Shown piece by piece: positions 52,247 to 57,120 of a DNA stretch of 57,281 bases. Source of the stretch: a virus. Lineage: Duplodnaviria > Caudoviricetes. The notes under the pieces are model-generated. The model made no database searches, was not told the origin of the DNA, and worked only from the letters and a program-made list of their open reading frames with translations. The DNA is taken from positions 1-57,281 of the IMG/VR virus record IMGVR_UViG_3300014838_000023; one strand, 5' to 3'. Made by a program: the position numbers and the translations under genes. Each line of letters begins with the position of its first letter. Position 1 is the first letter of the stretch.

Positions 52247-52621
52247 AGTACACGCGCGAGCAGCTTAGGGCGAAGGGATGGGGGCGTCGATTCGTCGCCT
52301 ACTTCTGGTACACCGGATGGTCGAACCTTTCGTTTGGAGTCAACATTGATCTCGCTCAGCCGAACATCGAAATCCATCTCCCGGTCTGGTTCTTTCGAAT
52401 CGGCTGGATCGGTAGGCTCGATCTTCGTGGTCTAAAGCACCATCAAGCTCGTTCGTTCGGCTACGGTGTCAAGCGATGATCGACATCAAAGCGTTGAAGG
52501 CCGAAGCCTACCTGCGCAAGCTGGAGCCGGGGCAACCGAAACGGCATTGCCAAATTCTTGAACAGATCGCCAAAGAAAACGGCTTCAAGACTTGGGCGGC
52601 ACTACTCGCATCTCAGAAAAA

Positions 52622-52990
52622 ATGAAGACCATCATCGCCGGCTCGAGATTCGACTGGTACGACGAGGCCTTGCGTGCTCGCTGGAGGAAGGTTCTCTACG
52701 CCGCGGCCGACGAGTTCTACCTGGCCTACGGCATCACCAAGGTCTTCAGCGGCACGGCCTCTGGCTGCGATAGGCTGGGCGAGGAGTGGGCGCAAAAGAA
52801 CTGCATCGGCGTCAAGTACTTTCCAGCGGCTTGGGAAAACGGACGACAGGCCGCTGCGAGAAACGCGGAGATGGCCAAGGAAGCCGACGCGCTGATCGCG
52901 GTCTGGGATGGAGTCTCGCCAGGGACCCGGCTCATGATCGACATGGCGCACAAGCGAGGCTTGACGGTTTGCCTTCGGATATTCGGATGA
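52622..52990 (+). CDS. YspA/DUF2493 SLOG-family protein
   Basis: IIAGSR...SGTASGCD..GEEWA...RNAEMA...WDGVSPGT..MID. Confidence 0.8.
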   Translation: MKTIIAGSRFDWYDEALRARWRKVLYAAADEFYLAYGITKVFSGTASGCDRLGEEWAQKNCIGVKYFPAAWENGRQAAARNAEMAKEADALIAVWDGVSPGTRLMIDMAHKRGLTVCLRIFG

Positions 52991-55380
52991 TCGGCCGCCC
53001 CCGCGAAACCCCAACGCCGACTCCCGCGCGCGAGTTCGTGCCCAGGCCTTGGCAGCCGCCGATGATCGATTTCGCGCTGTCTCACAAGCGGTGCAACATC
53101 CTGGCGCGCATGGGCATGGGCAAGAGCTCGGCCATCCTGGCAGCCCTCGACGCGCTCATGTTGAGTGGGGCCGTCAACAAGCCGCTGGTGCTGGCGCCCT
53201 TGCGCGTGGCCCGCAGCACCTGGCCCGAAGAGGCCAGGAAGTGGGAGCAGTTCGAGTACATGAAGATCCAGCCGATCGTCGGCCAGATCGACGCTCGAAA
53301 GAAGGCCCTTCTGAATACCGACGCCGAGATCTTCACCGTCAACTACGACGTGCTGCCCTGGCTGGTCTCGCACCTGGGCCGCAAGTGGCCGTTCGACTGC
53401 GTGGTTGCCGATGAATGTTTTGAAGCTAGTACTCCGATTCTCACACAACAAGGCTTAAGACGTATAGACTCCGTTCTTGAAGGCGAGCTTGTTGCTACCG
53501 CCTTCGGTTTCAAACGGGTGTCATATGTCTTCAAAAAGAAAGCCTCGTCGCTCGTCCGACTCCATCTGTCCGACGGAAGAAAAATTGTCTGTACTCCAAC
53601 TCACTCATTCTGGGCTGAAGGTCGTTGGACAGCATCCGAAAACACAACCGGACTCGCTCTTGTTTGTTCTACGGACGTGCAAGCACTGCGACGCGCAATT
53701 CGGAATCCGAGCTTCGCAACTGACGTCATCGAAAAGAGGCCAGTATTGCAGTCGGTCCTGCTCGACCTTGGCATGGACATCAACCAAGCCGAAGGTATGG
53801 TTTCAAGAGCAGGCCATGAAAGACCTGTTGCCTTGGATCAAAGCGAACGGATCCTGGAATTCAGGAATTCCGATGCGAGAGTCGACACGCGAAAAGCTGT
53901 CTGTGCAAGGCCGTCTTCGAGGCGATCCGTTCACGTCAAAGACTCGCGGCGGGAATGGAACAGGCATGAGCGACTGCGAAGTAATTTTGAGCCGAGTTCT
54001 GGAGCCGGGATGGTTCTGGAACATGTCGATCAGTACGAGAGTGTTGACGAGAGCGGGATGGAAAGGTTTGCCCTCGAACTACAAACCGGATTTCGCATGG
54101 CCGGAGCGCAAGACCTGCTTGGAAGTGGATGGAGCGACACACAACACAAAGATTGGAAAAGAGCGAGACATAAAGAAGACCGAAGCCCTCGAAGCGTTAG
54201 GGTGGACCGTGTTGAGAATATCGAATGCGGAGGTTCGGTTGCGGTATGGGATCTCGAAGTAGAGGATGCACATCATTACTTCGCGAATGGGATCCTTGTG
54301 CACAACTGCACCAAGCTGAAAAACCATCGCCTCACGCAAGGCGGGCAGCGTGCGCAGGCTCTGTCCGATGTCGCCTTCTACGATCCGAAGAAGCCTACGG
54401 ACGTGCTTGTGGATCGCTGGATCAATTTGAGCGGCACCTTCTCGCCGAACGGCCTGGCCGATGTGTGGGGCCCGATGTGGTTTTTGGATCAAGGCTCGCG
54501 ACTGGGACGGTCCTACTCGGCCTTCGAGAACCGATGGTTCGGGTATCTGCGCGCCAAGGACGCCGTCAACGCCCACAAGACCCGCATCAAACGCATCGCG
54601 TTCCCGCACACCTTCGCCGAGATCACCGGCCTCATCAAGGACGTGACGATCTCGTTCGATCCGAAGGACTGGTTCGACGTCAAGTACCCGATCGTCGAGC
54701 GCATCTACGTCGACCTGCCGCCCACGGTCAGGGGGAAGTACCGGGCCATGGAGCGCGAGATGTTCACGCAGATCGCCGGCTACGACATCGAGGCCTTCGC
54801 CTCGTCTGGCAAGGTTATAAAATGTTTGCAACTGGCCAACGGCGCGGTCTACACCGGCAGCGAAGAGGAGATCGTGGCAGACGTCTCGCACTGGGTCGAA
54901 GCGCACGACGAGAAGCTGCAGGCCGTCGAGGAGGTCATCGAAGAGGCGCAAGGCGCGCCCGTGATGATCGTCTATCACTTCAAGCCCGATCTCGTGCGTC
55001 TGAAGAAGCGCTTCCCGGAAGGCCGGCACATCCACACCAAGCAGGACGAGGACGACTTCAAGGCGGGCCTGATCGAGATCGCCTTCGTGCACGCCCAGAG
55101 CATCGGCCACGGAGTCGACGGCTTCCAGAACGTGTGCAACATCATCGTCTTCTTTGCTATATCATGGGACCTTGAAACACATGACCAAATTATTGAAAGG
55201 ATTGGGCCGATGCGTCAGATGCAGGCCGGGCTCGATCGCGAAGTCATGGTCTACCTGATCCTGGCCAGGAACACCGTGGACGAACTGGTCGACCGGCGTC
55301 TCGTCATGAAGCGCGCGACGCAGGACGCGACGTTTGACAGTTTCGCGTACAAGCCGCCACCTGAGGAACGACTCTGGTGA
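52987..55380 (+). CDS. SNF2-family helicase containing an intein
   Basis: RPWQ, MGMGKS, APLRVA..TW, DE|C, LSGTFSPN, LQLANG, GHGVD, RIG..RQ. Confidence 0.9.
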   Translation: MIGRPRETPTPTPAREFVPRPWQPPMIDFALSHKRCNILARMGMGKSSAILAALDALMLSGAVNKPLVLAPLRVARSTWPEEARKWEQFEYMKIQPIVGQIDARKKALLNTDAEIFTVNYDVLPWLVSHLGRKWPFDCVVADECFEASTPILTQQGLRRIDSVLEGELVATAFGFKRVSYVFKKKASSLVRLHLSDGRKIVCTPTHSFWAEGRWTASENTTGLALVCSTDVQALRRAIRNPSFATDVIEKRPVLQSVLLDLGMDINQAEGMVSRAGHERPVALDQSERILEFRNSDARVDTRKAVCARPSSRRSVHVKDSRREWNRHERLRSNFEPSSGAGMVLEHVDQYESVDESGMERFALELQTGFRMAGAQDLLGSGWSDTQHKDWKRARHKEDRSPRSVRVDRVENIECGGSVAVWDLEVEDAHHYFANGILVHNCTKLKNHRLTQGGQRAQALSDVAFYDPKKPTDVLVDRWINLSGTFSPNGLADVWGPMWFLDQGSRLGRSYSAFENRWFGYLRAKDAVNAHKTRIKRIAFPHTFAEITGLIKDVTISFDPKDWFDVKYPIVERIYVDLPPTVRGKYRAMEREMFTQIAGYDIEAFASSGKVIKCLQLANGAVYTGSEEEIVADVSHWVEAHDEKLQAVEEVIEEAQGAPVMIVYHFKPDLVRLKKRFPEGRHIHTKQDEDDFKAGLIEIAFVHAQSIGHGVDGFQNVCNIIVFFAISWDLETHDQIIERIGPMRQMQAGLDREVMVYLILARNTVDELVDRRLVMKRATQDATFDSFAYKPPPEERLW
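53416..54306 (+). mobile_element. Intein (297 aa) inserted in helicase motif II
   Basis: Begins CFEASTPI after VVADE. Block B CTPTHSF. Ends VWDLEVEDAHHYFANGILVHN followed by a Cys +1. Lower GC than the flanks. Confidence 0.9.
53477..54262 (+). CDS. DUF559/Vsr-like endonuclease with Zn finger, nested in the +1 frame of the intein (start uncertain; first ATG at 53525)
   Basis: CKHC...YCSRSC, SWNSG...ESTREKLS (NUMOD-like), YKPDFA...LEVDGATH...D..K...L...GWTVLRISN. Confidence 0.75.
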   Translation: MKASLLLPPSVSNGCHMSSKRKPRRSSDSICPTEEKLSVLQLTHSGLKVVGQHPKTQPDSLLFVLRTCKHCDAQFGIRASQLTSSKRGQYCSRSCSTLAWTSTKPKVWFQEQAMKDLLPWIKANGSWNSGIPMRESTREKLSVQGRLRGDPFTSKTRGGNGTGMSDCEVILSRVLEPGWFWNMSISTRVLTRAGWKGLPSNYKPDFAWPERKTCLEVDGATHNTKIGKERDIKKTEALEALGWTVLRISNAEVRLRYGISK

Positions 55381-55913
55381 GAAACCGAGACTTGCCCCCT
55401 GTCGACTACTTGCGATCTCGACTTCGTCTTGATCGAAAGATGGGGCAACTGTTCTGGAAACATCGGCCGGACTGCCAGTTTGTCGACCCAAAGTACGCTC
55501 TGACTTGGAACAAGAAGCATGAAGGAAAAAGAGCAGGAGGTAAGAAGGGTCGAGGCTATCGAATGGTGAGAATAGACGGTGTCGCGTACCTTGAGCATCG
55601 TGTCATTTTCGCCTTGGCCAACAATGCGGATCCGGGCCGATTCCAGATCGATCACCGTAAAGGAAACGGATCGAACGCACCAGCAAATCTGCGCTTGGCC
55701 ACTCATTCCCAGAACCTTCAAAATCGAAGGAAGACGGTGTCAAACAATACGAGCGGGGTCCGGGGTGTGCACTGGAGTACCCAGGCTAAAAGGTGGATGG
55801 CGATCATTCCGTTCGAAGGAAAACGCGTCTACCTTGGGGTCTTCAAAGACCTCAAAGAAGCGGCGAAAACTCGACGTTCGGCCGAACGATTTTTCTACGG
55901 AGAGTTCTCATGA
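55377..55913 (+). CDS. HNH endonuclease with AP2 domain
   Basis: YLEHRVI...IDH...N...NLRLAT..QN...NTSGVRGVHW...YLGVF. Confidence 0.85.
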   Translation: MRNRDLPPVDYLRSRLRLDRKMGQLFWKHRPDCQFVDPKYALTWNKKHEGKRAGGKKGRGYRMVRIDGVAYLEHRVIFALANNADPGRFQIDHRKGNGSNAPANLRLATHSQNLQNRRKTVSNNTSGVRGVHWSTQAKRWMAIIPFEGKRVYLGVFKDLKEAAKTRRSAERFFYGEFS

Positions 55914-56581
55914 CCAGCGACCCCATCCGCCTTCTCGACCACGGTCTCGTCCGACTGATCGATCACATGGGCGACGACATGACGATCGTCAGATCGGCTC
56001 GTGTCAGCTACAACGCCGAGCCGAGGGGCGACGGCAGCGATGCCAAGCTCATCAACTACCTGATGAAGAACCGGCACACGTCGCCATTCGAGGCCGTGTC
56101 GTTCCTCTTCGAAGTGAAGGCGCCGATCTTCGTCTTCCGGCAGTGGCATCGCCACCGCACGTGGAGCTTCAACGAGGTATCGGCTCGCTACACCGAGCTG
56201 CCCGAGGAGTTCTACACGCCCGAGCCCGATCAGATCACGACGCAGTCGACCACCAACAAGCAGATGCGCACGACCGAGCAGCACGAGCGCGCTAGCACCT
56301 GGGCGCAGGTCATGGCCATGCACAATCGCACGAGCTTCACGATGTACAAGTCGATGCTCGAGGACGGCGTGCCGCGCGAGCTCGCCCGCACCGTACTGCC
56401 GCTGGCCACCTACTCGCACATGTTCGCATCGGTCGACCTGCACAACCTGTTCGGCTTCTTGAGACTGCGCCTGCACGAGCATGCCCAGATGGAGATTCGC
56501 GTCTACGCTACGGCGATGCTCGAACTGATCCGGCCGATCGTGCCGGTGGCTGTGACGGCGTTCCTGGAGTATGGGCTATGA
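55910..56581 (+). CDS. thyX: FAD-dependent thymidylate synthase
   Basis: SARVSY, HTSPFE, RHRTWSFNEVSARY, ELARTVLP, HAQMEIR. Confidence 0.95.
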   Translation: MTSDPIRLLDHGLVRLIDHMGDDMTIVRSARVSYNAEPRGDGSDAKLINYLMKNRHTSPFEAVSFLFEVKAPIFVFRQWHRHRTWSFNEVSARYTELPEEFYTPEPDQITTQSTTNKQMRTTEQHERASTWAQVMAMHNRTSFTMYKSMLEDGVPRELARTVLPLATYSHMFASVDLHNLFGFLRLRLHEHAQMEIRVYATAMLELIRPIVPVAVTAFLEYGL

Positions 56582-57120
56582 GCATCACGAGCTATCGCGC
56601 CTTGGGCGAGCCTCATAGCGTCGACTGCCGGTACTTCGGGGAGAAGACGGGATTCGTTCTCCGATTGCCAGGCGGCGTCGACTACACACCCGACCCGACG
56701 AACCCGAAAGACATGATCGGCGCCACCAAGTTGCCGCTGGGCCTCATTCCGGATACGGTCGACGTCTATGCGGCCATGGCGTTTGCCGAGGGCGCGTCGA
56801 AGTACGGCGCCTTCAACTGGCGTGCGGCCGGCGTGCGGTTCTCGATCTACCTGGAGGCCTTGCGAAGGCACTGCATTCGCCTCTCGAACGGCGAGTGGGA
56901 AGACCCGAAGACCCGGGTCCCGCACCTGGCCAGCATCATCGCCTGCGCCGGCATCATCGCCGACGCGAAGCTATGCGGAAACCTGATCGACGACCGGCCT
57001 CCGTCCGTCGACATGAACCCGCTGATCGAGGTCTCGGAAGAAGTGACCAAACACGTCAGGACGATCAACGCGGACAAGACACCGCATCACTGGACGATCG
57101 GTGACAACCTCAAAACCTAG
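56578..57120 (+). CDS. DUF5664 dATP/dGTP diphosphohydrolase-like protein
   Basis: NPKDMIGATKLPLGLIP...GASKYGAFNWR...HLA...DDRP. Confidence 0.75.
   Translation: MSITSYRALGEPHSVDCRYFGEKTGFVLRLPGGVDYTPDPTNPKDMIGATKLPLGLIPDTVDVYAAMAFAEGASKYGAFNWRAAGVRFSIYLEALRRHCIRLSNGEWEDPKTRVPHLASIIACAGIIADAKLCGNLIDDRPPSVDMNPLIEVSEEVTKHVRTINADKTPHHWTIGDNLKT

Follow-up and report, generated by a model that had tools for sequence, protein, structure and literature searches.

A putative Vsr-like homing endonuclease encoded in the +1 frame of a phage helicase intein, and a phage intein family with the same layout

Introduction

In a canonical bifunctional intein, the endonuclease domain is read in the intein's own frame and is part of the intein polypeptide. 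The DNA analysed here, IMG/VR virus record IMGVR_UViG_3300014838_000023 of a phage of the Caudoviricetes (hereafter the window, which is the complete 57,281-base record), raises the question of whether an intein can instead house its endonuclease in another frame of the same codons. Its putative helicase gene is interrupted by an intein whose frame is open throughout, while the +1 frame of the same strand holds a second open reading frame (ORF) with the features of a nuclease. The reading that we consider very probable is that this is a mobile class-1 intein in helicase motif II (DE↓C, the arrow marking the intein boundary here and below), over which a separate nuclease gene has been overprinted in the +1 frame, with the intein being spliced, the nuclease being initiated internally and the element spreading by homing.

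Results

The features of the helicase frame (frame 0) are as follows.

52987..55380, + strand: helicase precursor gene (SF2/SNF2-like phage DNA helicase), from its ORF, its translation and weak ResIII/DEAD Pfam matches
53416..54306, + strand: intein, 891 nt or 297 codons, from the Pfam Intein_splicing match and the gap against the intein-free helicase Bbp47
53416..53691, + strand: N-terminal splicing (Hint) domain, intein residues ~1-92, including block B; predicted local distance difference test score (pLDDT) 93-98
53692..54195, + strand: host-frame linker, intein residues ~93-260, stop-free, low pLDDT
54196..54306, + strand: C-terminal splicing domain with blocks F/G, intein residues 261-297, pLDDT 97

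Outside the intein, the helicase shares 49% identity with the DNA helicase Bbp47 of Bordetella phage BPP-1, and alignment to this protein leaves a gap of precisely the 297 residues, VVADE↓STKLK in Bbp47 corresponding to VVADE(intein)CTKLK in the window. Cys1 is encoded by codon 53416-53418, right behind the motif II residues VVADE; the intein opens with Cys-Phe-Glu-Ala-Ser-Thr, carries the block B motif TxxH as TPTH, and ends in Leu-Val-His-Asn (His-Asn at 54301-54306), followed by Cys+1 at 54307 and Thr-Lys-Leu-Lys. The Pfam Intein_splicing model matches frame 0 with an expectation (E) value of 3.2e-11 and 43.7 bits against a cut-off of 35.8, and the Pfam search of this frame returned splicing/Hint models only, with no nuclease family among them. 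Across 52 family members, C1, F2, I17, H63 and N297 are invariant, and H296 and V295 are conserved in at least 90%. In the AlphaFold2 model of frame 0, 10-residue blocks over residues 1-90 reach pLDDT 93-98 and the C-terminal domain forms strands at 261-282, 287-290 and 293-296, while residues 100-260 remain at pLDDT 40-66 despite the 52-sequence alignment, and this host-frame core is predicted to be disordered. Judged by its sequence, the insert is a class-1 intein of the Hint fold, canonical at both ends and placed in an essential helicase motif. An earlier model-generated note on this DNA (the original prediction) had described a 297-codon open intein frame with normal splicing motifs at both ends and no endonuclease motif in its centre; the coordinates, the Pfam matches and the Bbp47 gap agree with the former, and the Pfam result for frame 0 with the latter.

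The +1 frame contributes three further features.

53525..54262, + strand: putative homing endonuclease gene in the +1 frame, ATG to TAG (54260-54262), 245 aa, Pfam DUF559
53678..53761, + strand: four-Cys zinc ribbon of the endonuclease, C52, C55, C75 and C79 of the 245-aa protein
54077..54238, + strand: DUF559/Vsr-like nuclease core, residues 185-238, with the invariant RGGNG motif upstream at 53945-53959

This frame is open from 53468, with a TTG at 53477 as its first listed start (53477..54262, 261 aa), and the ORF ends 44 nt short of the intein end, within the C-terminal splicing strands. Its product matches DUF559 (PF04480; E=1.4e-9, 38.3 bits against a cut-off of 20.6) and, more weakly, REase_MTES_1575. 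A protein search found 19 homologues, of which the eight closest (50-66% identity, 240-264 aa) all start at the residue aligned with Met 53525. In an alignment of 65 family members, every one of which matches DUF559 in Pfam, the zinc-ribbon residues C52, C55 and C75 are invariant and C79 is conserved in at least 90%; K187, D189, E200, G203, H206, K218, G226, W227 and N234 of the nuclease are invariant too, and the motifs that vary little or not at all are RGGNG, YKxDF, E-V-D-G-x-x-H and G-W-x-V-x-R-x-x-N. The AlphaFold2 model of the nuclease has a mean pLDDT of 82.2 and is confident from residue ~45 onwards, with the core at 96-98, the zinc-ribbon strands 47-51 and 58-62 at 81-96, and residues 1-40 forming a low-confidence tail at 42-57.

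The nuclease core may have a Vsr-like fold. A profile search of the PDB retrieved the DUF559 structure 3hrl_A at E=6e-4, and in a Foldseek search of the PDB the catalytic domain of I-Bth0305I (3r3p_B) ranked second (probability 1.00, E=1.5e-2, target-normalised template modelling (TM) score 0.58) and Escherichia coli Vsr (1vsr) fifth (probability 0.94), behind a mitoribosomal protein at rank one. I-Bth0305I, a member of the EDxHD family (PDB 3R3P, said to have been described by Taylor et al. in 2011), is reportedly encoded in a group I intron. The window protein resembles I-Bth0305I and Vsr in its Pfam DUF559 fold class and differs from I-Bth0305I in that the profile match to 3r3p_A is marginal (E=0.59) and in that its conserved motif is E200-V-D202-G-x-x-H206 rather than E-D-x-H-D. 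The claim that the +1 frame encodes a zinc finger and a DUF559/Vsr-type nuclease, separate from the intein frame and stopping inside intein block F, stands, by the Pfam match, the conserved Cys residues, the position of the stop and the conservation of the +1 ORF among relatives; the additional label 'NUMOD-like' does not, as the window protein has no NUMOD3 match at E≤0.1 and only 1 of the 65 family members has one at E≤0.01. The arrangement is thus that of a non-canonical intein: the endonuclease lies outside the intein polypeptide, in a separate same-strand ORF in another frame, and the host frame stays open.

Two frames open over the same codons could be a matter of chance. When synonymous codons of the +1 ORF were permuted 2000 times and stops were counted in the host frame, the shuffles held a mean of 7.8 host-frame stops against 0 observed, and the host frame was open in 0/2000; the third frame of the window has 10 stops against 8.5 expected. 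The double openness exceeds chance.

The same layout recurs well beyond the window. With the nuclease alignment as query, 188 relatives turned up in IMG/VR, and the best 80 were inspected; with two contigs of metagenome-assembled genomes (MAGs) from GTDB and two cultured phages, these 80 make 84 related loci, and in 84/84 the nuclease ORF is +1 to a spanning open host frame. The homologues had been named in the original prediction as the place to look, a nuclease always found in frame being the outcome that would speak against it; the opposite was found, with both frames open in every related locus. In the 80 IMG/VR loci, the spanning host frame measures 448-2863 aa, the third frame is closed in all, as it is in the two MAG contigs and the two cultured phages, and the nuclease ORF runs to 108-377 aa from stop to stop, the shortest being cut by contig ends. 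The 80 loci and the window fall into 53 clusters at ≥90% nuclease identity, and in 53/53 the host frame has no stops against 3.7-18.3 expected (fraction of open shuffles ≤0.009 each), while the third frame is at expectation, with 13.6 stops against 12.9. Host-frame segments match Intein_splicing in 50 of the 53 clusters. Hosts are SNF2/ResIII helicases in 37-38 of the 53, XPB-like proteins in three and DNA polymerase III delta'-like or AAA proteins in two, with others besides; Cys1 directly follows helicase motif II/Walker-B residues in 52 of 53 (mostly DE, also DEAH/DEGH-type, and ESHY once), and the intein ends in (H/S)N followed by C/S in 52, the remaining one being cut by the contig end. 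The sites occupied by the family are Walker-B/motif-II positions in several P-loop NTPases, DE↓C and DEAH↓C among them, and intein sizes span 274-440 aa. Of 52 representatives, 49 have the nuclease stop inside the codons for the C-terminal splicing domain, and in 33 of those 49 it falls 8 nt before the intein end; in the other three it lies past the intein end. No host-frame stop, as would mark a fractured gene with a split intein, occurs in the window or in any of the 84 related loci, and since the host frame is unbroken, the precursor is expected to splice in cis. In a search for relatives with the nuclease fused into a longer protein, none of 2213 candidates scored at E≤0.001, which is weak evidence.

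GTDB species genomes yielded two relatives only, both on short MAG contigs with the same layout. A tblastn search of the nuclease against 50,697 GenBank phage records gave 36 matches (33 Vibrio, 2 Corynebacterium and 1 Pseudomonas), and, among the matches listed, each of 30/30 falls under a single host-gene annotation. In Pseudomonas phage MR14 (gp44, 'putative helicase') and Vibrio phage 1.194.O (NVP1194O_69, 'coil containing protein'), the nuclease match is +1 to the annotated gene and the nuclease itself is unannotated; both phages hold an intact nuclease ORF of 241 or 261 aa with the family motifs, and their host protein reads QDE↓CFPAGT...VVVHN↓CHH. As both are cultured, viable phages carry the layout. 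On sequence grounds, a large and diverse phage intein family, most of it unannotated, has kept the +1-frame layout. Some of its members (L054, L062/L063, L066 and L120) have inteins after DEAH/DEGH-type motifs within giant open frames of 2055-2863 aa, which often run off the end of the locus.

The two genes share structured coding sequence at both ends of the nuclease ORF.

53525..53691, + strand: 5' overlap, in which the low-confidence tail and the first zinc-ribbon strand of the nuclease lie over structured intein N-domain codons
54196..54262, + strand: 3' overlap, 67 nt encoding nuclease residues 224-245 and intein residues 261-282

In the 5' overlap, the pLDDT of 42-57 over nuclease residues 1-40 compares with 93-98 for the intein residues from the same DNA; in the 3' overlap both proteins are modelled with confident structure. 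Which frame is under selection where was assessed in relatives from substitution rates by codon position, in nine phylogenetically independent pairs with 72-92% nucleotide identity, eight of them gapless over ~1470 nt. The rates at host positions 1, 2 and 3 were:

N-extein: 0.20, 0.12, 0.38
Intein before the nuclease ORF: 0.11, 0.10, 0.37
N-domain overlap: 0.125, 0.051, 0.316
Core: 0.334, 0.143, 0.154
C-domain overlap: 0.142, 0.132, 0.193
C-extein: 0.15, 0.11, 0.37

The exteins and the N-domain have their substitution peak at host position 3, the core at host position 1, the wobble position of the nuclease frame. The nuclease frame is under purifying selection in the core of these relatives and, because the wobble peak there is that of the nuclease frame, openness is all that selection maintains in the host frame of the core. 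The sequence of the nuclease's N-terminal tail follows from that of the intein, and the final ~135 nt of the intein, which evolve slowly at all three codon positions in the relatives, are constrained in both frames. The suggestion that the helicase frame tolerates a junk insert is supported: the core, predicted to be disordered, shows stop avoidance only.

Whether the element moves is addressed by its distribution. Of the IMG/VR loci, the 35 whose helicase C-exteins are closest (39-98% identity) include just one with the intein, the contig L002 of a related phage from a different IMG/VR record; 33 of the 35 are intein-free, reading ADE↓(A/S/C)T(K/R)xK, and one is cut before the junction. The helicases that carry related inteins are far more distant, their host-frame segments sharing 15-38% identity, and the GC content of the intein (0.475-0.545) is well below that of its flanks (0.60-0.68). 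Because of these distant hosts, the intein-free close helicases and the GC contrast, the pattern fits horizontal acquisition by homing. The site concerned would be as follows.

53410..53415, + strand: upstream half of the presumed homing site, GAT GAA, encoding D-E of motif II, with the downstream half beginning at 54307

Discussion

The nuclease needs a route to translation, and internal initiation is favoured. Three observations lead to this: the Met aligned with that of ATG 53525 is where the closest homologues start; 16 of 52 representatives have their first ATG 0-3 codons past the upstream stop in the nuclease frame; and a Shine-Dalgarno-like match precedes the start in 21 of 31 representatives (of the 53, the 31 covered by the start-site analysis). 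In these 21, a TTG, GTG or ATG at +151 to +157 stands at normal spacing from a 4-5-nt match (GAGG, GGAG, AGGA or GGAGG), which in most cases is supplied by the codons for V-E-V in an intein strand.

The mechanism that we propose runs as follows. A ribosome on the helicase frame would read through the N-terminal Hint domain of ~92 aa, a disordered linker of ~165 aa, for which the sole requirement would be to contain no stop, and the C-terminal Hint part of 37 aa, after which the Hint halves would associate and splice the helicase together. Separate initiation at ATG 53525, within codons of the intein N-domain, would yield a 245-aa protein of zinc ribbon and DUF559/Vsr-like (PD-(D/E)xK-type) nuclease domain, terminating at TAG 54262 within codons of the C-domain. 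This nuclease would cut intein-free helicase alleles at or near ADE↓xTKLK, and the whole element would spread when the break is repaired from the copy that bears the intein.

Several points weigh against this interpretation. Splicing, the +1-frame protein and cleavage are all deduced from sequence. Foldseek gave no PDB hit at E≤1e-3, and by E-value the likeness of the nuclease to I-Bth0305I and Vsr is weak. The census covers the best 80 of the 188 IMG/VR relatives, and the pairs used for the codon-position rates come from sub-clades with inteins of 280-293 aa (seven from the 289-293-aa group, plus the pair L049/L077) and not from the window's own sub-clade, where conservation is at the protein level only (50-66% identity) and the closest homologues, P0001-P0008, are known as protein. 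ATG 53525 is preceded by a weak GGTG only and lies in a predicted hairpin (53479-53563, -28.7 kcal/mol, z=-2.5, equalled by 3 of 200 shuffles). A 291-nt contig from a metatranscriptome library lies over 53612-53902, which is no proof of transcription, strand or ends. Given the weak GGTG and the hairpin, nuclease expression may be low or regulated, with uncertain initiation efficiency. The hairpin (+ strand) pairs the weak GGGUG 5' of ATG 53525 with downstream sequence, and recalls the attenuators of translation that have been described in free-standing endonuclease genes.

The same features at ATG 53525 leave room for another route, named as an option in the original prediction: programmed +1 (or -2) ribosomal frameshifting, which would make an N-extein-intein(N)-nuclease fusion with no start of its own. 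The absence of a strong Shine-Dalgarno sequence at this ATG, the A-rich run TTCAAAAAGAAAG after it and the predicted local RNA structure would suit such an event, which we nevertheless regard as unlikely. The aligned Met starts of all eight closest homologues and the Shine-Dalgarno-like matches at +151 to +157 count against it, and an ATG so close to the upstream stop leaves almost no room for slippage into the nuclease frame upstream of it. Entry into the +1 ORF ranges from +40 to +283 nt, and a fixed shift site is therefore not apparent, slippery sites not having been searched for specifically.

With internal initiation preferred, it can still be asked whether the nuclease acts. Homing cycles predict that a nuclease decays after fixation, and the element is present in both L002 and the window, so that the +1 ORF of the window copy could be an intact relic and the intein a long-linker mini-intein that has lost homing. 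We hold this to be quite improbable. The nuclease ORF is full length, and its family is under purifying selection in the +1 frame; the closest helicase alleles are intein-free, and homing targets therefore exist; and the sharp GC contrast suggests that the element is unameliorated. All family-invariant residues are present in the window protein, which is so by construction, the window being the reference row of the 65-member alignment.

More improbable again is that the insert is not spliced, being tolerated as a surface loop or leaving a dead helicase. Such an element is on record in phage ShiLan, in which, according to the part of the source available, an out-of-frame HNH insertion without splicing domains lies in a phage methylase (Arsenault et al., 2025, PMC11855218). 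The two elements are alike, as far as that part of the report describes it, in hiding an endonuclease in another frame of an insertion that leaves the host frame open, and differ in that the element here is by its sequence a bona fide intein (PMC11855218). Here Cys1, the invariant block-B His, the terminal His-Asn and Cys+1 are all in place, Intein_splicing scores above its cut-off, the insert separates the DE of motif II from the next residues, which a helicase should not tolerate, and the same layout occurs in viable cultured phages.

A sequencing or assembly artefact, in which two compensating indels displaced an in-frame nuclease, was already doubted in the original prediction and is rejected, as far as assemblies can tell, as having next to no likelihood, since L002, which differs from the window at 73 alignment columns over 52622-55331, has one substitution and no indels across the 891-nt intein, contigs of the metagenome runs X4, X5 and X6 (study codes P4-P6; separate studies, none flagged as a possible source of the window) have no indels over 53200-54500, and the frame relation is identical in 84/84 related loci.

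Relation to described elements

The original prediction implied more novelty than the mobile +1-frame intein can claim, as out-of-frame and antisense intein endonucleases had already been described. An early out-of-frame intein endonuclease is reportedly credited to Gorbalenya (1998) by a preprint on a cyanobacterial dnaX intein. That preprint, in the portion accessible, reports a LAGLIDADG gene in the +2 frame and terms the layout a rarity (Phillips, DeSimone and Gogarten, bioRxiv 10.64898/2026.09.14.751524). To judge from this portion, the dnaX intein shares with ours a same-strand overlapping ORF, purifying selection on the endonuclease frame and a relaxed extein frame in the overlap, the differences being a LAGLIDADG enzyme, the +2 frame and a bacterial dnaX host there against a DUF559/Vsr-like enzyme, the +1 frame and a phage helicase here (10.64898/2026.09.14.751524).

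Close in concept are actinobacteriophage inteins with antisense LAGLIDADG, antisense Vsr-like and same-strand, frame-3 endonuclease VII-like endonucleases, for which, in the accessible text, an origin by invasion of the intein by a free-standing endonuclease gene is proposed (Gosselin, Arsenault and Gogarten, 2025, bioRxiv 10.1101/2025.01.02.630785). As in the inteins there described, a contiguous intein with a conserved splicing domain contains a separate endonuclease ORF, and Vsr-like/EDxHD-like nucleases are among their types. However, going by the same text, their Vsr-like type is antisense and their sole same-strand type is endonuclease VII-like, whereas here a Vsr-like/DUF559 enzyme is encoded on the sense strand in the +1 frame; their hosts are DNA polymerase, minor capsid, terminase and thymidylate synthase genes, whereas here they are helicases and other P-loop NTPases of non-actinobacterial phages; and, against the survey as far as it is accessible, the family here is large, with 188 IMG/VR relatives and 53 distinct clusters inspected (10.1101/2025.01.02.630785).

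The fractured genes form a third point of reference, in which a free-standing Vsr-like or GIY-YIG endonuclease gene stands between split intein halves (Dassa et al., 2009, PMC2677866). On the evidence of the available part of that paper, the similarities include a Vsr-like homing endonuclease accompanying phage inteins in genes of DNA metabolism, overlap of the endonuclease 3' end with C-intein coding sequence (6-69 bp there, 67 nt here) and, in some cases, a hairpin near the endonuclease start. In contrast, the same part describes an N-intein that ends in a stop, a C-intein with a new start of its own and splicing in trans, where the host frame here is unbroken, and it considers structural zinc unlikely in that family, where a four-Cys ribbon is conserved here (PMC2677866). 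The openly searchable literature, outside of which lie supplements and subscription journals, yielded no contiguous helicase intein with a DUF559/Vsr-like endonuclease in the +1 frame of the same strand, and no family of this size. The concept is thus known, and what we did not find in print is helicase inteins of the same-strand, +1, Vsr-like type in such numbers.

Implications

Since the nuclease is never in frame and the intein never split in 84/84 loci, and 53 distinct lineages are represented, the +1 layout might be the ground state, stable and under selection, of a large, old family of phage inteins that has hopped between the Walker-B/motif-II sites of its P-loop NTPase hosts, with overprinting being adaptive and not a rare, transitional accident; we put this forward tentatively, at a little short of even confidence. 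If it were true, overprinting would uncouple the dosage of the nuclease from that of the helicase and keep the Vsr-like domain out of the splicing precursor; intein codons would serve as the ribosome-binding site of the nuclease (for example V-E-V as GTGGAGGT) and as its stop; and the linker would be a clear natural case of a peptide selected solely for the absence of stops. With respect to prevalence, the preprints call such layouts rare, while this family points to one type, at least, being long-lived and common among environmental phages. For annotation, homing endonucleases in an alternative frame get missed. The family, which stands between fractured genes and bifunctional inteins, offers many natural replicates of how inteins gain endonucleases, and its overlaps allow a test of two proteins that share ~70-170 nt of structured coding sequence. 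Candidate tools, going by the sequences, would be a ~130-aa splicing core with a dispensable ~165-aa linker and a Vsr-like nuclease that is probably very specific.

Genomic context

The helicase frame is open from 52786 to 55380, and the gene probably starts at ATG 52987, because the upstream ORF ends at 52990, its stop being overlapped by this ATG. In DNA searches of GenBank phages, just the C-terminal helicase part was matched (66-72% identity) and no record covered ≥80% of the query; in protein searches, 0 of 1541 matching GenBank phage records covered ≥80% of the intein-bearing precursor. Scans of 52500-55500 for promoters (2 sites against 0.9 expected) and terminators (2 against 3.2) gave background levels.

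The divergence between the window and L002 is patchy, with 1 difference in 53237-54506, 50 in 55100-55331 and a 3-nt indel at 52851, and it suggests mosaic recombination around the helicase 3' end; given this patchiness, the near-identity over 53237-54506 is not taken as a sign of recent homing between the two. In the interval between the helicase and thyX, a free-standing homing-endonuclease-like gene (55377-55913, + strand) begins 4 nt within the helicase stop; it has a Pfam HNH_3 match (E=3.4e-6) and a weak AP2 match, and forms a low-GC patch (0.505-0.54). Upstream of the helicase, 52592-52990 (+ strand) encodes a YspA/SLOG-like protein (E=5e-6, slightly under the cut-off). Nucleotide-metabolism genes occupy 55793-57120 (+ strand), encoding ThyX (Thy1, E=7e-53) and a protein with a dATP/dGTP diphosphohydrolase N-domain (E=1e-19).

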